A stretch of 64,000 nt of DNA, from IMG/VR virus record IMGVR_UViG_3300021602_000281; one strand, 5' to 3'. Of the stretch, positions 1 to 9,500 are shown piece after piece (the first letter of the stretch is position 1; the number at the start of each line of letters is the position of its first letter). The position numbers were made by a program, and so were the translations under genes. The notes beneath the pieces are model-generated. The model made no database searches, was not told where the DNA came from, and saw nothing but the letters and a program-made list of their open reading frames with translations. This stretch comes from an uncultured virus (IMG/VR IMGVR_UViG_3300021602_000281) (taxonomy: Duplodnaviria > Heunggongvirae > Uroviricota > Caudoviricetes).

Positions 1-24
1 GTTTTTACTGTGCTACTAATTTAG

Positions 25-98
25 TGGAGCAGGTAGGGAGAATCGAACTCCACTCAGCGCAGCTTGGAAGGCTGGCGTCCCACCTCGGGCTTACCTGC
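25..98 (-). tRNA. tRNA-Gly(UCC), atypical
   Basis: Acceptor stem GCAGGTA/TACCTGC, anticodon loop CTTCCAA, T-loop TTCGATT and encoded CCA. A at position 8, short D arm, mismatch at the base of the T stem. Confidence 0.85.
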
Positions 99-115
99 AT
101 TAAACTATGTCACAA

Positions 116-228
116 CGTTATACAGCTACACACTTGCAGGAATCGAACTCTGCCAACTCAGCCACAAGGGCCAAGCTATCAACCATTATATCTGCGTGGC
201 CTACGCATTGGTGTGTATGTGTATAACG
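116..228 (-). ncRNA. tRNA-like structured RNA with long closed terminal stem
   Basis: Terminal helix CGTTATACA..TACACAC / GTGTGTA..TGTATAACG, T-arm GCAGAG-TTCGATT-CCTGC and two further hairpins. No CCA end and no canonical anticodon loop. Confidence 0.55.
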
Positions 229-265
229 CCGTATTGTTAAAGATCGTTTATTAACTCAAGCCACT

Positions 266-294
266 ATTATATAGCCATTTGAATTATTCGTCTA
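266..294 (-). promoter_or_regulatory. sigma70-like promoter for the tRNA-like RNA and tRNA-Gly
   Basis: TAGACG-17 nt-TATAAT on the minus strand. Confidence 0.55.
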
Positions 295-327
295 CTACTA
301 CGATCTCTTAATAATCAATGACTTACG

Positions 328-402
328 TGGTGGTAACGGCTGGACTCGAACCAGCACCTTGCTCCGTATGAAGGAGGTGCACGACCGTTATGCTACGTTA
401 CC
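328..402 (-). tRNA. tRNA-Met(CAU), elongator-like
   Basis: GGTAACG/CGTTACC acceptor, loop TTCATAC, TTCGAGT T-loop, CCA. Confidence 0.85.
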
Positions 403-406
403 GTGT

Positions 407-484
407 TGGAAGTGCGGGTCGGATTTGAACCGACGGTTTTTCGGATTTGCAATCCGATGCAATGGGCCACTCTGCCACCGCACT
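407..484 (-). tRNA. tRNA-Cys(GCA)
   Basis: Cloverleaf, anticodon arm TCGGA-TTGCAAA-TCCGA, U discriminator, CCA. Confidence 0.92.
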
Positions 485-490
485 ATAATA

Positions 491-564
491 TGGCACACCT
501 CCAGGGACTCGAACCCCGACGAACAGTTTTGGAGACTGTCATGCTGCCATTACATTAGAGATGC
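491..564 (-). tRNA. tRNA-Trp(CCA)
   Basis: Anticodon arm ACAGT-CTCCAAA-ACTGT, G discriminator, CCA. Confidence 0.92.
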
Positions 565-569
565 ATAAC

Positions 570-645
570 TGGTAGGACTTGCCAGGTTCGAACTGACGAC
601 ATTCTGCGTGTAAGGCAGACGCTCTACCAACTGAGCTAAAGTCCT
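570..645 (-). tRNA. tRNA-Val(UAC)
   Basis: Anticodon arm TCTGC-CTTACAC-GCAGA, canonical D and T arms, CCA. Confidence 0.95.
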
Positions 646-689
646 GAATTTTACTGCACTATGCTGGATGCCGGTTACTAAATATATGT

Positions 690-1469
690 ATGCTAAAACC
701 ACACATAGAAATTATCGATGGATCTATTCCGCTTGACTTGCGTACACAAGTTTGGGATTATTTAGGCGACCAAACCTGGGCTGTCCTGCATAATAAAACT
801 ATAAAGAAAGAAGGTAATATTTCTTTCTTTGTCCCAAACAAAGATGGATGGGACTACTGCGAAACTAACGCAATTATCAACAAATACGGATGTTCTACCC
901 CACGTGCATTATTAGCAGTAGATGAACACTATTTAAAAGCCAAACATAAGATAATCCATGCGCTGTGGGAAAGAATTAATCTAACCCTGGGCAATAAGTA
1001 CGAAATAACCGGAGCCCCCGAGGGTAGCTTAGTTGACGACACCCTAGAATGGGAGCCAAAAACAGCGGTTCCGGGTTTAAAAGCAGGCTGGCGTGTATAT
1101 ACCAACGGCAGGCCAAACGAATCTGTGTATCGTGCATACGGCATACACAAAGATAATATTAATGTCGACGAAGAAGGCACGTTCAATATTTTATATTGTG
1201 CCAATCTAGAATGGTATCCAACTTGGCTTGGCGAATGTGTATTTTATCCCAATGATGCTGATACCGGAGACACACAACAATTTCAAAAAGAATCTAGAAA
1301 CCAAAGTAGAGACTTTCCAGTTGGTTGGCCTAGTGAAATTGTTGGTAGTGTGCCCGGCCGTCTTATTGTATACGATTCACGTGTATTACATAATACACGG
1401 GCATCTTCGTCTGTATCGAAAGGTATGCGAGTAACGATTGCATTTAGATCGCGCCTTAAAAAACAGTAA
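690..1469 (+). CDS. 2OG-Fe(II) oxygenase (prolyl 4-hydroxylase-like)
   Basis: HxD (IHKD), distal His (VLHNT) and terminal RxTIAFR. TAAATA lies 5 nt before the ATG. Confidence 0.8.
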   Translation: MLKPHIEIIDGSIPLDLRTQVWDYLGDQTWAVLHNKTIKKEGNISFFVPNKDGWDYCETNAIINKYGCSTPRALLAVDEHYLKAKHKIIHALWERINLTLGNKYEITGAPEGSLVDDTLEWEPKTAVPGLKAGWRVYTNGRPNESVYRAYGIHKDNINVDEEGTFNILYCANLEWYPTWLGECVFYPNDADTGDTQQFQKESRNQSRDFPVGWPSEIVGSVPGRLIVYDSRVLHNTRASSSVSKGMRVTIAFRSRLKKQ

Positions 1470-1472
1470 TTC

Positions 1473-1548
1473 TGGTGGAGGTGGACGGGATCGAACCGAC
1501 GACATTATGCTTGCAAAGCATACGCTCTCCCAACTGAGCTACACCCCC
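1473..1548 (-). tRNA. tRNA-Ala(UGC)
   Basis: G3:U70 pair, loop TTTGCAA, CCA. Confidence 0.95.
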
Positions 1549-1994
1549 AAATTGCTTAATATATAGTCCGGATTTACTTCGCTGTAAATCTTTTCTTTTG
1601 TATCCGGGCCTATCTTTATCTTTACAAACGGTTGTTGATAATATTGCTCAACAACCATGTTATTTAATACACAGGCAAATTGCCAATATTCTCTTAAAAA
1701 ATTAGAGTTGCCTTTTTTATCCAGTAGACATTTAAAGGATTCTAAATTATCTTCATCGGACAATTGTATAAACTTTATCTTGTTTGATAACTTTGGTGCT
1801 AAAATGTCAAACAGGATAAAATTACAAAACGACACACAATATACATCATCAATACCAGCCGACACAAATTTATCATGCAAGGTAGTAATATGTCTAATGT
1901 GTGTTACTGTTGGATAACTTTGTATTCGGTTTATACCAAATATAACTATCCGTTTATTAGATAGAGAATCAGATTCTAGAAAAAGGTCTTTCAT
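1539..1994 (-). CDS. Redoxin/PRX5-like protein lacking the peroxidatic Cys
   Basis: KRIVIF...PTVTH...GIDDVYCVS pattern resembles Prx5 (KKVVLF..PTCS..H..GIDEIACVSVND). Confidence 0.55.
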   Translation of the reverse strand: MKDLFLESDSLSNKRIVIFGINRIQSYPTVTHIRHITTLHDKFVSAGIDDVYCVSFCNFILFDILAPKLSNKIKFIQLSDEDNLESFKCLLDKKGNSNFLREYWQFACVLNNMVVEQYYQQPFVKIKIGPDTKEKIYSEVNPDYILSNLGV

Positions 1995-2033
1995 AGAATC
2001 TGATTATAAACTAAAAACAAATTAAAAGCAATA

Positions 2034-2984
2034 CTAGCCAAGTCGAATATTATTGATTAAACCTGGTAAGAATACCGAATCATACTTTGCATACAATGGT
2101 TCAGTTAATGCTTCAAACTTGGCCATTTCTTCTGCACTTAGTTCTTTATAATAAACACCAGTTTCGGCTGGATCTTGAGTAGACAATCTCTCGCTATCCT
2201 CAACAGACCATTTACGCTCTAATCGAGCGGCATTAGTTGCTGCCTTGGCTAACTTATCTTTTAACTCATCATCTAAACTGTTCCAAAACTTCTCACTAAC
2301 AATAATGCTAGTTAAAAACAAACTATGTTTTGTATCAGTAACATAACGCTTATTAGTTAAGTTAACAGTTGATAGCAAACGTGGTACTGTTGTATCAACA
2401 GCATCATGGTTATCACCTTCTGTGTGTACAGATGTCCAATAATCTTCAATTGCATGAGCGTCTGGGCAACCACCAATGGCTTCAATTGTATCAATACCAA
2501 TTGGGTTTGTACCAGTATAGAAACTTAGGTTTTTAAAGTCTGCTAAAGTTTCAATTTCTTTGTCGCTTGCAATAATACGGAAGCCGCCGCTGTATGTAAA
2601 TGCTAAACCACGAGCTGGTGATTTTTCTTTTAACTCATCTAACATACTTTGACCAATCTTACCTTCTAATACACGGGTAGCATGATCATGATCTTTAAAT
2701 AGGAAAGGTAGTTCAAGCGCCATAAATGACGGCACATTCCATTTCCATAGCTGGCTAATATGCAATTGGCTCATTTCAAGCTCGCCGCGATCCATATAAA
2801 CCATTGGGTTTTCTTTGTGGCCTTGATTGAACTTTTCAGCGTATTGCGTTGCTGTGTATATTTCAATGTCTATTGCACCATCTGTAGCAGTCTTTACTTC
2901 AGCGGCAAATGCTTGTGCTGTACGTAAAAATAACTCTACTGGGGAGTGGGCAATTAGCCACTTGATCTTTTTAACTTCTTTCAT
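2034..2984 (-). CDS. dctP: TRAP transporter substrate-binding protein DctP-like (no signal peptide)
   Basis: G.IDIEIY, ALELPFLFKD.DH, SGGFR, T.HS....IIVSEKFWNSL motifs. AGGAG Shine-Dalgarno. Confidence 0.85.
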   Translation of the reverse strand: MKEVKKIKWLIAHSPVELFLRTAQAFAAEVKTATDGAIDIEIYTATQYAEKFNQGHKENPMVYMDRGELEMSQLHISQLWKWNVPSFMALELPFLFKDHDHATRVLEGKIGQSMLDELKEKSPARGLAFTYSGGFRIIASDKEIETLADFKNLSFYTGTNPIGIDTIEAIGGCPDAHAIEDYWTSVHTEGDNHDAVDTTVPRLLSTVNLTNKRYVTDTKHSLFLTSIIVSEKFWNSLDDELKDKLAKAATNAARLERKWSVEDSERLSTQDPAETGVYYKELSAEEMAKFEALTEPLYAKYDSVFLPGLINNIRLG

Positions 2985-3074
2985 GTGGGAATTCTCCTGG
3001 GATTTTAAATATTTAGTATAGGAATACTATACATGTATTTATGTGCGGCCCAGCAAAACTTCAAACATTAAAAT

Positions 3075-3159
3075 TGGTGGAGGAAGATGGATTCGAACCA
3101 ACTAGCCCTAGAGAACAGATTTACAGTCTGCCGCGCCCCGCCGTCTGCGCCGTTCCTCC
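3075..3159 (-). tRNA. tRNA-Tyr(GUA)
   Basis: GCAGA-CTGTAAA-TCTGT, long variable arm, CCA. C at position 8. Confidence 0.92.
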
Positions 3160-3162
3160 GTT

Positions 3163-3259
3163 GTATTCTAAAACATACTAGTGTCGCGGTGATTCCGTGC
3201 TCTGCCCCACAAGGTTTTCATGACCTTTGGACGCTCTCATCTGATATGCTTTAGAATAC
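3163..3259 (-). ncRNA. Candidate structured ncRNA with 15-bp terminal stem
   Basis: GTATTCTAAAGCATA pairs with TATGTTTTAGAATAC. Internal hairpin AAGGT-CATGAAA-ACCTT. Confidence 0.5.
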
Positions 3260-3405
3260 CCTGTATTGCTACAGGATATGATAGGGATAATACCCTACCC
3301 AGGAGTCTTACTAGTGTGTTAACGCCACACTTTCATGTATCCTGTCCGCCCGTTTGCCAGATGTTTATAGTGCCTAGCGAGGACCTCGTTTCCTCTTATA
3401 ACACT
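3260..3405 (-). ncRNA. Candidate multi-stem structured ncRNA
   Basis: ACAGGATA(CA)TGA/TCATATCCTGT helix enclosing the hairpins AGTGTG..CACACT and TAGGG..CCCTA. Also CCTGTA-GCAA-TACAGG GNRA hairpin. Confidence 0.5.
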
Positions 3406-3427
3406 TACTGCACGGTGCAGCTTAACA

Positions 3428-3577
3428 TTACTTCAATTTCTTAGCAACCTCTTTCTTCAATGCTAGAACGTATGCTTCTGCCCGCTGTACTTTACTTTCT
3501 AACAAAGCAACTCTCTGCTCTGCCGACAACACATATTTGTTATCAGTAGCTCTTTGTACTTTTTTCTTGTCTAGCAT
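3428..3577 (-). CDS. Small basic helical protein, 49 aa (not in ORF track)
   Basis: MLDKKKVQRATDNKYVLSAEQRVALLESKVQRAEAYVLALKKEVAKKLK, with a strong AAGGAG Shine-Dalgarno upstream. Confidence 0.7.
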   Translation of the reverse strand: MLDKKKVQRATDNKYVLSAEQRVALLESKVQRAEAYVLALKKEVAKKLK

Positions 3578-3590
3578 TCTATTCTCCTTA

Positions 3591-3626
3591 AAACAAAAAA
3601 CCCTAGGGTTTTTAGTCCTAGGGTTC
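3591..3626 (-). terminator. Intrinsic terminator (attenuator)
   Basis: AACCCTAGG-9 nt loop-CCTAGGGTT followed by TTTTGTTTT on the minus strand. Confidence 0.85.
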
Positions 3627-3649
3627 TTAAAGTTTGCTGGATAATTTAC

Positions 3650-3811
3650 TTAATCATCCCATCCTTCTCGAACCCTACTTCTAATCTCTACTGTACTACG
3701 ACCTAAACTATTCATATTAAACGCTGGTAGGAATCCACAGTTTGACCAATAGGCTAGGGAGCCCGGTGTTAGCTGTGTATGTTGTATTGAGTGTTTAATA
3801 ATCTGTTTCAT
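3650..3811 (-). CDS. Putative attenuator leader peptide, 53 aa (not in ORF track)
   Basis: MKQIIKHSIQHTQLTPGSLAYWSNCGFLPAFNMNSLGRSTVEIRSRVREGWDD, lying between a sigma70 promoter and a terminator. Its 3' codons are complementary to the terminator 5' strand. Confidence 0.7.
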   Translation of the reverse strand: MKQIIKHSIQHTQLTPGSLAYWSNCGFLPAFNMNSLGRSTVEIRSRVREGWDD

Positions 3812-3820
3812 AATTTATCT

Positions 3821-3849
3821 ATTGTACGTTATTTACCTTTTACTGTCAA
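3821..3849 (-). promoter_or_regulatory. sigma70 promoter of leader/tRNA array
   Basis: TTGACA-17 nt-TACAAT. The spacer also contains TAAATA. Confidence 0.8.
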
Positions 3850-3856
3850 CCTTGAT

Positions 3857-4825
3857 TTAACTTAATCTGATTCTTTTGATTAAATCACCGTATTCAGCAC
3901 CAAATCCCAAGTAAGTATAACGTGCTTTGTGTTTCATGTCAACCTCATCGTCGGCACTTAGTGGAGTAATGGTAATACCATTTGATACTGCATCTGCTTC
4001 AAATTTATCTGCATCTGCAATTGCCCACTCGCGTTCAATTCGTGCTGTAATTTTAGCACATTCTTCAAATGCTGTCTGTTCTTCTTTGGATAATGTTGCC
4101 CAAAATTTCTGTCCAGTTAAAATTGTTGTAATAAACATACTGTGGTTTGTCTTAAGGATATGGTTAACCTTGGAACGTAGGTATGTTGTTTCAACACAAT
4201 CAGCTGATCCATCTGTTGGGATCGTATCCCAACCACCCCATAACAATGGGTTAACGGAAATAGTTTCTGCACCAAAGGCTTCCAGTGTTTCTGTACGTGG
4301 TGTTTTATTACCAACTACAATAACACGCTTGTCTTGTAAATCGCCTAGGCTGGCAATAGCATGATTGCTACCAACAACGCGATAGCCACCGCTGTATGTA
4401 AATGCCAATCCCTTAACACTTGTATTTTTTTCTAAATTGGCACACATTTCAGCACCAATCGGGCCTTCAACAACACGTTTAACATGATCATGATTATCAA
4501 ACATAAACGGCAAGTCTAAGGTATAAAATGCACGATCCTTTGCACCAATCATGATAACTTGAGTTTGGCTCAAATGGATATCGTCGTCTAGCGCATCAAA
4601 CAATGCATCTACAGCCGCATCAACATTTTCTAGATCATCATCAAGAATAGTTGCTAATTCTTTTGCACCTTTATATTGTGCCACGTATTCCGGGGCAGTA
4701 ATGATTTCTAGATCAAAGTGGCCTGGCAGACGTTTATTCAGCTCTTGCTTAAACGCTTCTGCTGTACGTACAAATAGTTCTACTGGCTGATGTGCGATTA
4801 GCCAACGGATTTTTCTTGGTGTCAT
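3857..4825 (-). CDS. dctP: Second DctP-like substrate-binding protein (no signal peptide)
   Basis: Paralog of 2034..2984 (WLIAH.PVELF.RTA.AF, LDLPFMF, GLAFTYSGGYR, ARIEREW). Shares the upstream TCCCAGGAGAATT. Confidence 0.85.
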   Translation of the reverse strand: MTPRKIRWLIAHQPVELFVRTAEAFKQELNKRLPGHFDLEIITAPEYVAQYKGAKELATILDDDLENVDAAVDALFDALDDDIHLSQTQVIMIGAKDRAFYTLDLPFMFDNHDHVKRVVEGPIGAEMCANLEKNTSVKGLAFTYSGGYRVVGSNHAIASLGDLQDKRVIVVGNKTPRTETLEAFGAETISVNPLLWGGWDTIPTDGSADCVETTYLRSKVNHILKTNHSMFITTILTGQKFWATLSKEEQTAFEECAKITARIEREWAIADADKFEADAVSNGITITPLSADDEVDMKHKARYTYLGFGAEYGDLIKRIRLS

Positions 4826-4903
4826 TCTGAAATTCTCCTGGGAATTGTGTAATATTATGTATTTATTTAGCTATTTGATAGCGTGGCATTGATACTAGTA
4901 ATA

Positions 4904-6061
4904 TTATTTATCTACTACATTACCCAAACAGTAAAATGGGCTAAGGAATCCAATGAACCCAACTGGTTTGCCAAATTCCATATTAAAGTACTTGGTGTCA
5001 ACACTATTAGCCAACAATGTTAACCCAGCTTGCCAATTTAGATAGGCTGTTGATCCTTTAAAATTAGTGTAGAACCAATGGTCCATTTCTGGATAGAAAT
5101 TATTGCTTGGTTTAGATACCTGGAATGTTGTTGGATCCCAATCGGGGTAAATTAACGGTCTAATTATATGCTCAAACGTAGTACGTTGTGCAACAGAATG
5201 ATTTGGCCAACGTATCAAATGATTTAGCATTTGTGTCTGGGGAGTGCTAAACCAATTTTTAACTAGATGTACTTGTTTATGCACTATTTCTGGAAAGTCC
5301 GGAGTCCAAAAAAAGTATTCATTGGTTAAATTTGTATACTCGTACATAACACGATTTGCGTGGTTTGCTTGAAAATCAATAAAGTATGTGTACCACTTCC
5401 CATCACGTATACATACTTTAGGTTTATCAACCCCGTATAATATACAAATACTCTTACCTGTGTCAGCTTGGCGTTTGTGGTCCACGTGACTTAAATTATC
5501 ATGTTTAAATGCATGGCTTGGCTGTAGGAAATCGTTTGCTCTAAATACCCACGTGTCATTTAATTCTGCTTTGATCATATCTTCACTAAAATCATGTATA
5601 GTAATTTTAGTAGAAGGACTAGTTTTGGCTATCCACGCTAAAGCCGGCTTTGTAGCAAACTCATATTCACTTAAGAAGTTTTCAGATTTACTATTATGCG
5701 GATCGTTTGTGATAATGTTCTTATCACCTTGCTCCGGATATCTAAATACCACTTCATCAAGGAATATATTGTTGAGTAAGAAACTAAAGAGAATTGTGTT
5801 TGAGTCTGACCCGCCACTAAACTCAAGTCGAATGTAATCGTAATGTTCTCTTAACTGTAATGCACGTAGGCGATATAGTTCTCTAATGTCTGTAGTAGGT
5901 TCTTCATCCCACTTTAAATTATTAAACACATCTGGATTAAAATTCCATTGTGGGAAATTATTTGTTTTTGTTGCATCCATTAACGCCGTTGGCTTGTTAA
6001 AGTGAACATTGTCACCTACTGTATAGTATCCTAATTTTTTATTATTTTCTAAGTTATACAT
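4904..6061 (-). CDS. PP-loop (adenine nucleotide alpha-hydrolase superfamily) protein
   Basis: IRLEFSGGSDS PP-loop motif, G.DKP motif. Confidence 0.65.
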   Translation of the reverse strand: MYNLENNKKLGYYTVGDNVHFNKPTALMDATKTNNFPQWNFNPDVFNNLKWDEEPTTDIRELYRLRALQLREHYDYIRLEFSGGSDSNTILFSFLLNNIFLDEVVFRYPEQGDKNIITNDPHNSKSENFLSEYEFATKPALAWIAKTSPSTKITIHDFSEDMIKAELNDTWVFRANDFLQPSHAFKHDNLSHVDHKRQADTGKSICILYGVDKPKVCIRDGKWYTYFIDFQANHANRVMYEYTNLTNEYFFWTPDFPEIVHKQVHLVKNWFSTPQTQMLNHLIRWPNHSVAQRTTFEHIIRPLIYPDWDPTTFQVSKPSNNFYPEMDHWFYTNFKGSTAYLNWQAGLTLLANSVDTKYFNMEFGKPVGFIGFLSPFYCLGNVVDK

Positions 6062-6070
6062 TTATCAAAT

Positions 6071-6158
6071 TGGTGCCTCGGGCCGGACTTGAACCGGCAT
6101 AACCATTACAGTTGAGGGATTTTAAGTCCCTTGTGTATACCAATTTCACCACCGAGGC
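6071..6158 (-). tRNA. tRNA-Leu(UAA)
   Basis: AGGGA-CTTAAAA-TCCCT, long variable arm, CCA. Confidence 0.95.
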
Positions 6159-6191
6159 GTATTCTTTATCAATTACTCCAAACAATTATTC

Positions 6192-6266
6192 TGGTGGGCC
6201 AACTAGGAATTGAACCTAGACTCAATCGATTATGAGTCGAACGCTTTACCATTAAGCTATTGGCCC
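6192..6266 (-). tRNA. tRNA-Ile2(CAU, lysidine type)
   Basis: CGA-CTCATAA-TCG anticodon arm and GGGCC acceptor, as in ileX-type tRNAs. CCA end. Confidence 0.8.
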
Positions 6267-6274
6267 ATGCGTGT

Positions 6275-6303
6275 ATTATATACTACTGTGATTTATGTGT
6301 CAA
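6275..6303 (-). promoter_or_regulatory. sigma70 promoter for tRNA-Ile2/Leu
   Basis: TTGACA-17 nt-TATAAT, perfect consensus. Confidence 0.85.
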
Positions 6304-7169
6304 ACAATTCTTGCATCGGTGCAAGTTCTACATAGGCTTTCGTTGCTGAAGCATGGCCGAGCATTTTCTACCAAGATCTTGATCATTTCCGGACCAGTGA
6401 ATAATTCTTCATACGAATTTTCAAGTAGATTTCCGATTACGTGCTTGTTTGCATAGTCCATACAACATAACGCAACATCACCATTGGGCAACATCACATT
6501 TTGGTTGAACGCTTCTGTTTTGCTACAAGTAATTGGTTTTGAATGTTGTGGACCAAACTTAATGGGTTGATCCTTTACTTGTTTTGCTATTTGCTCATTG
6601 GGTAAGCTACCAGCACGATCATGCGCGGCGATGGACCAACTGTGACTTACTCCCATTCCCGGTAGATCACGTATGGCAGGATGCACTCCGTGGTCACTCA
6701 TGGTCATTGCTTCGTAATGTATACCAGCGGCTCGTACTACTGCCTGCATACCAGCATAGGCATATTCCCATTCATCGCTAATTTTCCAACCACGCATATT
6801 GCCTGCGGCATCGGGAAAGTGTATTTTAAATATTTCAATTTGGGCAGCATGATTTATCAACAGCTCTCCCATACGGTGTACAGTTTCTTCATCCCAATTA
6901 TACAAGGTAGTGAAGATTGCCACTTTATGCCCACGAGTCAATGCAAACTCCAACATCTCTGTGCAGTCGGGATTAACCCAAGGTTCAGCCATGCCCGAAA
7001 AATCAAGGCGGCAATCTATGGGCAACTTGCTGATAGCAGTTTTAAAGGTATCAACCGTCATGTACTTTACATCATCGCCGTATGCAGTTTTAAGACTATC
7101 CTGCGGGCAATATGTACACATTAACGGACAACCAACCATGGTTGTAATTTCCATTGTAGCACGGGTCAT
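6300..7169 (-). CDS. Radical SAM protein with SPASM domain
   Basis: CPLMCTYC motif; C-terminal C..NGDVALCC.D...GN...CRTC. Confidence 0.9.
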   Translation of the reverse strand: MTRATMEITTMVGCPLMCTYCPQDSLKTAYGDDVKYMTVDTFKTAISKLPIDCRLDFSGMAEPWVNPDCTEMLEFALTRGHKVAIFTTLYNWDEETVHRMGELLINHAAQIEIFKIHFPDAAGNMRGWKISDEWEYAYAGMQAVVRAAGIHYEAMTMSDHGVHPAIRDLPGMGVSHSWSIAAHDRAGSLPNEQIAKQVKDQPIKFGPQHSKPITCSKTEAFNQNVMLPNGDVALCCMDYANKHVIGNLLENSYEELFTGPEMIKILVENARPCFSNESLCRTCTDARIV

Positions 7170-7177
7170 GCTATTAC

Positions 7178-8749
7178 TTATCGGCGTTGTCTAAAGGATT
7201 CAAAATTTGCTCTTCGTTCGCGAACTGGCTGAGCAGGCGGAACTGTTTCTGGAGCAGGTGCAGGTGGTGGTGGTGCGGGTGGTGGTGGTGCGGCTGGAGC
7301 AGGTGCTACTGGTTTAGTGCTAACTGGAACTTTTAGTTCGGGAAACTGTTTAACCAAAATAGCATAAATCTTTTTATTATCAGATCCTTGCAAGGCTTCC
7401 CTTGCTACTACGTTGTAAATTTGCTCTATCACACCCTGGTTTTTAACACCACGGCGTGCCGATAAATCTTTAGCAAAATCCATACAACGATTCAAGAATT
7501 CAGCTTTACTAATGCGCGGCTTCTTTACTGGAGCATCGGGTTTTGCTTTTGTCCATTTTTCTTTTTCAGCTGCGGCTTTCTGGTCCGCGGCGGCTCTAGC
7601 ATTTGCTCCAAACGTAGTTGGTACTACTTCTAATTGTGGATATACACTTCGACCGGGATCTTTAATAGTAGACAGATAAAATGTGTTTGCATGAAAACGT
7701 AATTTTTCATTTGTTAACTCTTCAGCGGTCCTAAAATACATAAAATCTTTACGATTTAAATCTATTGCTAGTACACCGTCATCGTCTTTACTATCTATAT
7801 AATAATTAAAACTTGCCTGTGAGTATGCTTGTAAACCAGCAGTACTATTACCAGTCTGGATAGCCTTTATAATTTTAGCAACTGATGGTGTTTTTTTGCC
7901 GCCAAAGATTAAAGTAATAACACTGGTTAATAAACCAGTTAGCGTAGTTTGATCTTTTGACGGAATATTTTTGTATAACTCAATTGCTTTATTAAGATTT
8001 AAACCAGCAGTTGGATAACCTTTTGGATATAATTGTTGTATTGGGTATACATTACTACGTTCGCCGTGTTTGTTTTTAACAAAGTTATTAATGGCAATGG
8101 CAGCATTTTCGTAACCCTCTGCAGGGCGAACTTCTTGGTCGGCAAAACGGGCGGCTCCGCCTTGTGTAGTTTTAACTTCAACTTTAATCCACTGACCACC
8201 CGTGTATACCACTAGGTCGCCCTTCTTACTGTCATTGCCTTCTGTTTTAGCAACACTGATACTTTTGCTTAATACGTTTAATCCAAATTCGCCCTTGCCT
8301 TGGCCGAGTTGCTGTTCTTCCATAATATCATCAACTAATTCTTTAATCATTAAATTAGTAGTGTATCCGTTAAAAATATCTGCAAATGTATGACGCTTCT
8401 TGGATAGTAACATACCTATGTTAACAATCTTATTGGCTTTCCACATACGGAAAAGCTCTTCGCGCTCGGCTGGGGTTGAATTAATATTTAAAATATATTG
8501 TGCTAGGCGCTTTTGTGAGGCCATAACTGCTGGATCATTTATTTCTTCTAATTGGCCGTAAACCATTTGACGGAAACCACCAGCATGAATGTGCTTTAAT
8601 AATTCTTCAATTTCTTTAAGAGTTTTAGCTGTAGCATCATCGGCTGGTAATTCTTTAATTTTAGCAGCGATAATAGATTTAAAAGAATCAATTTGGTCGT
8701 TACTAGGGCTAAGGTCTTCTAATAGGTTTATTAAGTCACGCATTTTCAT
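7178..8749 (-). CDS. Hypothetical protein with PD-(D/E)XK nuclease-like core and Pro-rich tail
   Basis: GKGE...KGDL...KVEVKT motif order; PAPPPP tail; N-terminal MRDLINLLE. Confidence 0.5.
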   Translation of the reverse strand: MKMRDLINLLEDLSPSNDQIDSFKSIIAAKIKELPADDATAKTLKEIEELLKHIHAGGFRQMVYGQLEEINDPAVMASQKRLAQYILNINSTPAEREELFRMWKANKIVNIGMLLSKKRHTFADIFNGYTTNLMIKELVDDIMEEQQLGQGKGEFGLNVLSKSISVAKTEGNDSKKGDLVVYTGGQWIKVEVKTTQGGAARFADQEVRPAEGYENAAIAINNFVKNKHGERSNVYPIQQLYPKGYPTAGLNLNKAIELYKNIPSKDQTTLTGLLTSVITLIFGGKKTPSVAKIIKAIQTGNSTAGLQAYSQASFNYYIDSKDDDGVLAIDLNRKDFMYFRTAEELTNEKLRFHANTFYLSTIKDPGRSVYPQLEVVPTTFGANARAAADQKAAAEKEKWTKAKPDAPVKKPRISKAEFLNRCMDFAKDLSARRGVKNQGVIEQIYNVVAREALQGSDNKKIYAILVKQFPELKVPVSTKPVAPAPAAPPPPAPPPPAPAPETVPPAQPVRERRANFESFRQRR

Positions 8750-8759
8750 AGTAAAGTAT

Positions 8760-9500
8760 TTATCTCCGTTCTATATCATCTTCGTCACACCGCATGCCAT
8801 ATTGTATTTCCACTATTTTGCAAGGTTCTTTAAAAGGATTGTACAGTCTATGCCAATGGTTATTGGGCACATATTGGAACTGATGCATAATACGTGCTTG
8901 TTCACCGTCCCCAAAATCAACTACACAAGATCCGTTTGTAATAAACCACATTTCGCTACGATCTGCGTGTCGTTGCATACTCAGTGTTTTCCCCGGCATG
9001 ACTATAAGCTCTTTAACTTTGGTGCCTTCTACCTCATGTAATACACGGTAATATCCCCAAGGGCGTATGGTCTTGGGTGCTTTCCACTCCTCTAGGATCC
9101 AACTACTACTGTTGGCTTTGTTTGTTCCACCAACCCCAAACACAAACTCAATTCGTATATCTTCAAACTGCATTTCTGGAATGTTTGTGTTTGTACGGTC
9201 GCCGCCGTTTGCAAATATTATATCAGCTGATGGATATAACATCCTAACATTTTTGATAGCTTCAATTGCCGAATCATCATTGTCGTTAAACAATATACAA
9301 TGATCCACAACTTTGAGATTTTGAACTACATCTATACGTTCACCTGCCGGCATAAATGCACGACCTTTTTTACGCCCAAGCCAGCTGTCTGAATTGATCC
9401 CCACTATCAGTTTATCGCCCAATGCTTTGGCCGCTGTTAAGTATTCAATATGGCCGCTGTGCAATGGGTCAAAGCCACCGGTGCAAAGTACTATTTTCAT
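8760..9500 (-). CDS. Cytidylyltransferase-like domain fused to mannose-6-phosphate isomerase cupin
   Basis: GGFDPLHSGH (HxGH) and ANGGDR; RPWG.Y..LSMQRH..RSE.W..WHRL.N..IVEIQYG..EDDIER. Confidence 0.88.
   Translation of the reverse strand: MKIVLCTGGFDPLHSGHIEYLTAAKALGDKLIVGINSDSWLGRKKGRAFMPAGERIDVVQNLKVVDHCILFNDNDDSAIEAIKNVRMLYPSADIIFANGGDRTNTNIPEMQFEDIRIEFVFGVGGTNKANSSSWILEEWKAPKTIRPWGYYRVLHEVEGTKVKELIVMPGKTLSMQRHADRSEMWFITNGSCVVDFGDGEQARIMHQFQYVPNNHWHRLYNPFKEPCKIVEIQYGMRCDEDDIERR

Follow-up and report, generated by a model that had tools for sequence, protein, structure and literature searches.

A putative ribosome-mediated attenuator with an amino-acid-diverse leader ORF at the head of a phage tRNA array

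The 64,000 nucleotides (nt) of uncultured freshwater phage DNA analysed here (IMGVR_UViG_3300021602_000281; hereafter the window) contain a compact element made up of a promoter, a small open reading frame (ORF) encoding a leader peptide and two alternative RNA hairpins, followed by tRNA genes; all its features lie on the minus strand. We read this element, with somewhat better than even confidence, as a ribosome-mediated transcription attenuator that heads a phage tRNA block and whose leader samples all, or nearly all, of the 20 amino acids. The reading is built on the ORF itself, its amino-acid diversity, the competition between the two helices and the place before the tRNA array, which recur in the sequences of related loci. 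The sequence features listed in a preliminary description of the region, which had already proposed an attenuator, were all recovered where it had placed them, and the proposal was supported by the comparative checks reported below.

The leader ORF and its amino-acid diversity

The relatives gathered comprised 71 distinct peptides (35–55 amino acids (aa), median 41 aa) and 20 distinct DNA loci. The deposited-phage collection, searched at the DNA and protein levels, gave no close match to the element, and the nearest record (G001) was without it. Viral and metagenome contigs, together with a protein collection, yielded four close relatives (81–98% peptide identity): in these, the unit running from the -35 hexamer to the U-run is about 92% identical (five sequences, 90–92%), its substitutions are mostly non-synonymous, and the flanking genes are more diverged. 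Divergent relatives, with peptide identities falling to 24–34%, were found via a downstream non-coding motif, a downstream small protein and a peptide profile; the locus search used a narrower peptide alignment, the broad one being too variable. The element occurs in two forms, a short form (12 loci, used for the helix statistics) and a long form that includes the window. All 20 loci share a common layout, an ATG-to-stop ORF of 38–53 codons whose stop codon is placed within a long hairpin or at its apex. A covariance model derived from the short-form loci recovered all 19 complete loci, scoring the window at 42.7 bits (E = 3e-8).

The leader ORF of the window (3811-3650) has 53 codons followed by TAA (3652-3650), starts near-leaderless without a Shine-Dalgarno (SD) sequence and, as first described, encodes all 20 amino acids with 37 distinct codons; at least 37 distinct codons in 53 is uncommon among segments of the window's own long ORFs (P = 0.009). 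The frame was retained in 20/20 loci. The indels of a nine-locus alignment were of 6, 9 and 24 nt, all multiples of three, and 1.5–11% (mean 6.6%) of base-shuffled versions stayed open. The in-frame indels and the few shuffles staying open make a purely non-coding RNA unlikely; judged from these comparisons, the ORF is kept by selection as a frame. The preliminary description had looked to a conserved ORF length and stop position: the position of the stop is indeed kept, within the hairpin or at its apex, and the length is not (35–55 codons). Its emphasis on typically rare codons did not hold against the phage's own usage, in which ATA, CTA and GGA are ordinary (15, 13 and 18 per thousand); AGG, CGA and AGA are rare in that usage (1, 3 and 6 per thousand), and the codon adaptation of the leader is unremarkable (0.63, versus 0.67 ± 0.06, P = 0.26). 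The rare-codon idea was dropped, on a measure taken against phage usage, from which host usage may differ.

Constraint on the exact leader sequence at the amino-acid level is weak. Entropy by codon position was 0.92/0.93/1.03 in the leader, compared with 1.18/0.87/1.40 in the neighbouring small protein, and the synonymous share of single-base codon differences was 36% in the leader and 49% in the neighbouring gene. PHROGs contained no family for the leader peptide, and Pfam gave none for the window peptide and only chance matches (E ≥ 0.11) in 3 of 39 members. AlphaFold2, run with 39 sequences, predicted no fold or secondary structure (predicted local distance difference test, pLDDT, 56.5; predicted template modelling score, pTM, 0.13). 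A tRNA-like or transfer-messenger-RNA-like identity of the ORF region was rejected, as neither ARAGORN nor Rfam gave a match there. The family conserves two motifs of the peptide, AYW[S] and INSDREP. Conservation of the peptide as a functional protein had been named in advance as evidence against an attenuator: the weak overall constraint speaks for the attenuator, and the two motifs touch that clause. They are not explained by a pure codon sensor.

The composition of the window peptide on its own is only mildly unusual: the probability of finding all 20 amino acids in 53 residues was 0.016 given the composition of the window's proteins, 0.024 for real protein segments and 0.09 for base-shuffled open frames. 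The case therefore rests on the relatives. Among the 71 peptides, 20 distinct amino acids were present in 42, 19 in 15, 18 in 12 and 17 in 2, all-20 totals of this kind being inflated by sequence relatedness; when grouped at 70% identity, 15 of 22 clusters had an all-20 member. At 40 aa, the expected share of all-20 peptides is 0.17% with the window-proteome composition, 0.66% with the family composition, 0.48% in real segments and 0.6–3% in base-shuffled open frames. Shuffling within the columns of the alignment, which preserves both conservation and composition, gave 11.9 ± 2.7 all-20 peptides with a maximum of 21, and none of 2000 shuffles reached the observed 42, so that different lineages reach completeness by different residue placements. 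Cysteine illustrates this, occurring exactly once in 51 of the 71 peptides, twice in 5 and not at all in 15, and being spread over 13 alignment columns. In contrast, the neighbouring small protein (44–57 aa) uses only 13–17 distinct amino acids. These comparisons argue that amino-acid diversity is selected, the repeated relocation of rare residues being otherwise hard to explain. The diversity expected to survive peptide divergence did so, down to 24–34% identity. The distribution along the window peptide was also as first described: 19 amino acids occur before the antiterminator (residues 1–44) and Asp only inside it, at residues 52–53. None of the leader peptides has the run of one amino acid by which leader-peptide attenuators are defined.

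Two competing helices and the position of the ribosome

The antiterminator (3619-3677) consists in the window of an outer helix (3677-3670 with 3626-3619) and an inner helix (3659-3652 with 3646-3639), with the stop codon (3652-3650) at the apex. Folding the 228-nt transcript in full gave a minimum free energy (MFE) structure (-55.9 kcal/mol, z = -2.68, equalled by 1 of 200 shuffles) that contains this alternative hairpin of the preliminary description, with the stop lying at the border between stem and loop. The helix shares 4–8 nt with the 5' arm of the terminator that follows, and the two helices are mutually exclusive. In the short form (12 loci) it is a helix of about 19 base pairs, whose 5' strand is made of the last 4–5 codons and the stop codon and whose 3' strand extends into the terminator 5' arm; 93.4% of its cells were paired, versus 23–51% when the partner strand was slid. 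Both sides had changed in 7 of the 19 pairs (15 cells), and 0 of 500 shuffles reached the covariation score, so that complementarity in homologues, on which the attenuator had been said to depend, is maintained through compensatory changes. The four columns common to the helix and the terminator arm are paired, with GC, GU and AU all occurring in a single one of these columns. The stop codon is inside the helix in 12/12 short-form loci and at the apex in the long form, in which the apex carries an insertion of about 24 nt and the outer helix is kept, with a U-A pair replaced by C-G in L008 and L007. In the alignment made with the covariance model, the long-form antiterminator is out of place and some of the terminator arms are displaced.

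The intrinsic terminator reported to follow the ORF was also found, at 3590-3628: its 5' arm (3628-3617) and 3' arm (3607-3596) enclose a 9-nt loop (3616-3608), with a U-run at 3600-3595 and 3593-3590 and a folding energy of -16.4 kcal/mol in the window. A simple terminator scan missed it, the loop limit of that scan being 8 nt. A GC-rich stem with a U-run was present in 19/19 loci reaching that far (-12.4 to -20.1 kcal/mol). The arms co-vary between lineages (CCCTAGG, CCCTGG, CCTCGG, CCCCAGG), a pattern described from the sequences and given without a formal count, since the alignments shift register. The 9-nt loop is conserved across otherwise diverged loci as ACTAAAAAC (window 3608-3616), ACTAAACAC or ATTAAAACC, and is similar to a portion of the 3' strand of the antiterminator (ACTAAG).

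The choice between the two helices was followed by folding 18 loci from the ATG to the U-run at equilibrium (MFE), with a 28-nt ribosome footprint forced single-stranded. The terminator formed in 18/18 loci when the A site of the footprint was on the stop codon or 4 codons upstream; without a ribosome, the antiterminator formed in 14/18. Stalls placed 15, 12 and 8 codons before the stop gave the antiterminator in 14/18, 13/18 and 11/18 loci respectively, the last mainly in the short form. The helix choice switched in the way predicted when this check was proposed, and in such in silico folds, to which the statement is confined, the position of the ribosome would decide which helix forms. The order of transcription would favour the antiterminator beyond what equilibrium folds indicate.

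A further hairpin (hairpin 1, 3745-3767) is predicted inside the ORF, its 3' arm lying on the invariant GCCTATTGG (the Ala-Tyr-Trp codons). A mid-ORF hairpin was predicted in all 20 loci, made of different sequences in L029, L044 and L007, and 81% of the hairpin 1 cells were paired, versus 20–53% when slid. No pairing was found between hairpin 1 and the antiterminator strand. Hairpin 1 is a candidate RNA-polymerase pause hairpin, and it may offer a reason at the RNA level for the invariance of AYW, synonymous sites included.

Promoter, downstream genes and expression

The leader promoter (3821-3849), of the sigma-70 type, has TTGACA at 3849-3844, a 17-nt spacer and TACAAT at 3826-3821, as had been noted at the outset, and matches the consensus at 11/12 positions. 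A promoter scan of the whole window was near chance level (32 sites versus 27.7 expected), and the match therefore carries weight only because it is conserved: TTGAC with a TAnAAT or TATACT -10 hexamer was present in 18/20 loci, and L004 has a different upstream gene, yet conservation there begins at the -35. The window ATG (3811) follows the -10 hexamer after 9 nt with no SD sequence, in agreement with the start first described; in 18/20 loci the gap was 6–11 nt, and two consecutive ATGs are found where it is 6–7 nt.

The promoter spacer holds a family-specific motif, AAAAGGTAAATAA (3841-3829, minus strand), which occurs once in the 64-kb window; its ATAAATAA core, unusual for a spacer, lies directly upstream of the -10 in 18/20 loci. 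The motif may be a binding site for a regulator of the leader promoter. The 3' end of the upstream gene contains a second promoter-like site (3914-3942, minus strand; TTGACA-17-TATACT, 11/12), which precedes the leader promoter by 93 nt and is also present in L012 and L010. L004 contains, at 1865-1950, a decayed second copy of the promoter and the first 12 leader codons, ending in a stop and placed upstream of a 197-aa gene absent from that position in the other loci; from the sequence, the head of the element seems to have been duplicated when a gene was inserted here.

The first gene that the switch would gate (3428-3589) has its SD sequence, AAGGAG, at 3589-3584, right after the U-run, and a 49-aa ORF at 3577-3428. 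A small protein gene with an ordinary coding signature was found behind the terminator in 17 of the 19 loci reaching that far. The protein (44–57 aa) is conserved, with a strong SD sequence and a heptad-like, coiled-coil-like core (…EQKVALMEAKV.RAEAQV…), and no family match was found for it. Between the 49-aa gene and the first tRNA gene lies a conserved non-coding stretch of 268 nt (3160-3427) with near-invariant blocks, one 35-nt motif of which recovered 6 related loci; it is about 110 nt longer in L001 and L004. It may correspond to one or more stable RNAs made together with the tRNAs. Rfam searches at E ≤ 1 matched only tRNA in window positions 1-9000, and nothing else there or in 5 related loci.

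The first tRNA gene downstream, tRNA-Tyr(GTA) (3075-3159), begins 432 nt after the terminator, and the tRNA scan placed further co-oriented tRNA genes at 1548-1473 and 645-328. The four large records, among which is a 354-kb record with a completeness rating of 98%, carry one copy of the element each, and the expected position at the head of a tRNA array was found in all four: same-strand tRNA genes numbered 1 upstream and 21 downstream of the element in G003, 0 and 22 in G004, 3 and 11 in G002, and 0 and 39 in G005, that is, 11–39 co-oriented tRNA genes downstream, the first of them 391–838 nt past the element. The G005 array (L047, G005:C1:22900-39720) comprises 39 tRNA genes in 15 kb and covers all 20 amino acids, and the two other arrays examined cover 17 amino acids each, one of them being cut by the contig end. 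An all-amino-acid leader followed by arrays for nearly all amino acids would place a sensor of every residue before a tRNA supply of nearly the same breadth. No claim is made that leader and array match residue by residue: a leader without Cys and Val precedes a visible array lacking Cys, Val and Trp, on a cut contig, and the 98%-complete record is a counter-case, with an all-20 leader and no Lys or Val tRNA seen. One tRNA gene of the L047 array received an odd 2-base anticodon call.

In the window, tRNA and protein genes are interleaved throughout the block. Two paralogous genes of about 320 aa (2034-2984 and 3857-4825, minus strand; both phrog_31178) flank the leader/tRNA-Tyr unit. A perfect 12/12 promoter (6275-6303, minus strand) stands directly before tRNA-Met (6266-6192) and tRNA-Leu, so that some tRNAs upstream of the element have their own promoter, outside the switch.

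The expression data came from the contigs of a freshwater metatranscriptome (X3), among which one of 588 nt and depth 16 extends over 3225-3812 and so crosses the terminator; the RNA contig adjoining it upstream had a depth of 3.9, and coverage in the DNA run was flat at 20–26. These contigs give a weak hint, being compatible with a transcription start next to the ATG and some read-through. X3 has no cover in the bin 3170-3223. The ends of the 588-nt contig, at 3225 and 3812, are not readable as RNA ends, since contigs break at graph branches and the two contigs overlap by 28 nt (3785-3812). Run X20 contained small pieces only.

Proposed mechanism, alternatives and known systems

We infer that the near-leaderless ORF is translated in coupling with the polymerase, with a switch direction and a physiological trigger as follows. 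Transcription would begin a few bases before the ATG, and the mid-ORF hairpin may hold the polymerase until a ribosome comes. Once transcribed, the last codons of the ORF would pair with the sequence upstream of, and overlapping, the terminator 5' arm; if this antiterminator persisted, the polymerase would enter the small-protein gene, the non-coding stretch and the tRNA genes. A ribosome keeping pace and reaching the stop codon would unwind or block the antiterminator, so that the terminator would form and transcription would end near 3591; a ribosome stalled at any hungry codon further upstream would leave the antiterminator intact. Transcription of the tRNA genes thus probably rises when ribosomes decode slowly, a feedback in which slow decoding of any kind would raise tRNA transcription and smooth decoding would lower it. 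In a broader form of this proposal, to which we give slightly less than even odds, large freshwater phages would regulate the supply of their own tRNAs through closed-loop feedback, using a near-leaderless test peptide, selected to contain all residues, that senses any slow codon: slow decoding through loss of host tRNA, its cleavage or codon mismatch would cause read-through into the tRNA array, which serves up to all 20 amino acids, and the same peptide would shut the array down once smooth decoding was restored. The link to anticodon-nuclease defences raised in the preliminary description is speculation.

Several observations weigh against the attenuator. Amino acids are missing from 29 of the 71 peptides (1–3 each, mostly Cys, in 15 peptides, and Val, in 11). 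In the short form, Asp and Glu are mostly found in INSDREP, within the last 8 codons and so at the margin of the sensing zone, and a ribosome stalled there would cover part of the antiterminator strand. The INSDRE codons vary synonymously (AGT/AGC, GAT/GAC, CGT/CGC, GAA/GAG), a pattern suggesting that the peptide itself is under selection. No SD sequence precedes the ORF, whose start is near-leaderless, 6–11 nt after the -10 in 18/20 loci; in many bacteria, starts of this type are weak. As regards the RNA, the terminator was preferred at equilibrium in 4/18 loci even without a ribosome, covariation among just the close relatives was too slight to use (1 pair, the sequences being too similar), and the covariation of hairpin 1 was not significant (188 of 500 shuffles reached its score). 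No strand was found that would trap the antiterminator when translation is lacking, the counterpart of trp 1:2, and the default state would therefore be read-through. The tRNA block also contains genes and further promoter-like sites, such as the one at 6303-6275 before tRNA-Met, and the switch may thus govern only the proximal part. Finally, the RNA evidence consists of contigs of one run, in which DNA carry-over is possible.

Part of this evidence would fit an ordinary small phage protein acting in trans and furnished with its own terminator, the hairpin stabilising the 3' end of the mRNA and the read-through being leakiness. The two family-wide motifs, the synonymous variation in INSDRE, the frame present in 20/20 loci and the hypothetical-protein label assigned by gene callers favour such a protein. 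We hold it to be unlikely: the rest of the peptide is weakly constrained, with no predicted fold (pLDDT 56.5, pTM 0.13) and no family; a Cys wandering over 13 columns and compensated rare residues are unlike a structural role; the ORF has no SD sequence, whereas the next gene has AAGGAG; and the helix pairs specifically, and covaries, with the terminator 5' arm. The same RNA switch could instead be operated by an arrest peptide, whose nascent-chain motifs would stall the ribosome on one specific signal, the all-20 composition being secondary. AYW[S] and INSDREP are the sole strongly conserved features of the peptide, and in the short form INSDREP falls within the last 12 residues and would be in the exit tunnel as the ribosome nears the stop. 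Arrest is nevertheless a decidedly unlikely account, as the equivalents of the motif in the long form, the window included, are 17–32 residues from the stop, a distance that is not kept, the AYW codons are invariant also at synonymous sites and lie in the 3' arm of hairpin 1, which may reflect a constraint on the RNA, and the all-20 excess and the wandering Cys are left unexplained.

A promoter-to-terminator small RNA of about 220 nt acting in trans, with the ORF incidental or secondary, is highly improbable as a replacement for the attenuator, with which it can coexist. Among close relatives, the unit is more conserved in nucleotides (92%) than its flanks, with mostly non-synonymous substitutions, its 5' part is C/A-rich and unstructured and is followed by a strong terminator, and trans-acting attenuator RNAs are reported in the available part of one source (PMC6614838). 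Such an RNA would not account for a frame that survives indels of 6, 9 and 24 nt and a fall to 24–34% peptide identity, given that only 1.5–11% of shuffles stay open, nor for the selected amino-acid diversity, and it has no Rfam family.

Among known regulators, T-box RNAs work without an ORF, by direct binding of uncharged tRNA. The element resembles them in a choice between terminator and antiterminator that would report tRNA status; unlike them, it gave no Rfam T-box match at E ≤ 1 (window 1-9000 and 5 loci), and the conservation of the frame argues for sensing by the ribosome rather than for tRNA binding of the T-box type. Closer parallels are offered by upstream ORFs that sense stalling, namely mef/mel(msrD) (PMC4335068), toiL-topAI (PMC12121999) and whiB7 (PMC10274678), in which, according to the available parts of these reports, stalls at many positions of a short ORF alter downstream expression as a form of translation-stress surveillance. 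As described there, they differ from the element in answering antibiotics or particular starvations and in controlling resistance or stress genes, and in those parts none is reported with an all-20 composition as a family trait or with control of tRNA genes. The leaderless polycysteine short ORFs of mycobacteria are likewise described as attenuators (bioRxiv 10.1101/834739): as in the element, the ORF stands at or next to the 5' end of the transcript, has no SD sequence and governs downstream genes. In the portion of that report at hand, the mycobacterial ORFs carry Cys runs and sense cysteine, whereas in the leaders of the present element Cys is mostly single or absent. A literature search, covering the sources in part, found no all-amino-acid leader and no control of phage tRNA arrays by attenuation.

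The role of phage tRNA genes is debated, as the available parts of two sources put it, between codon compensation and escape from tRNA-targeting defences (PMC10264068, PMC11555353). If the attenuator is real, tRNA expression would be conditional on decoding trouble, which would link the two views. The selection for 'one of each' in a peptide of 38–53 residues would be an unusual evolutionary signature, and could help to find further sensors.

The attenuators of enterobacterial amino-acid operons (trp, his, leu, thr, pheA, ilv) combine a promoter-proximal short ORF, a terminator and an antiterminator that shares a strand with it. The element resembles these systems, of which pheL is a described leader-peptide case (PMC3082878, as far as available), in its short ORF, its terminator, its shared-strand antiterminator, the placing of the stop codon such that a ribosome there would block the antiterminator, and possibly a pause hairpin within the ORF. 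It differs from them in that a run of codons for a single residue is replaced by all, or nearly all, 20 amino acids, each present once or a few times; in that no strand trapping the antiterminator was found and the default would be read-through; and in that it is near-leaderless without an SD sequence, belongs to a phage and precedes tRNA genes instead of biosynthetic enzymes. Judged from the sequences compared, the element has the structural hallmarks of leader-peptide attenuators and lacks the codon run that defines them. If the proposed reading is correct, it would be the first attenuator to sense overall decoding capacity with tRNA as its output, and leader-peptide attenuation would extend from single amino acids to a general sensor of translation capacity that has RNA genes under its control.

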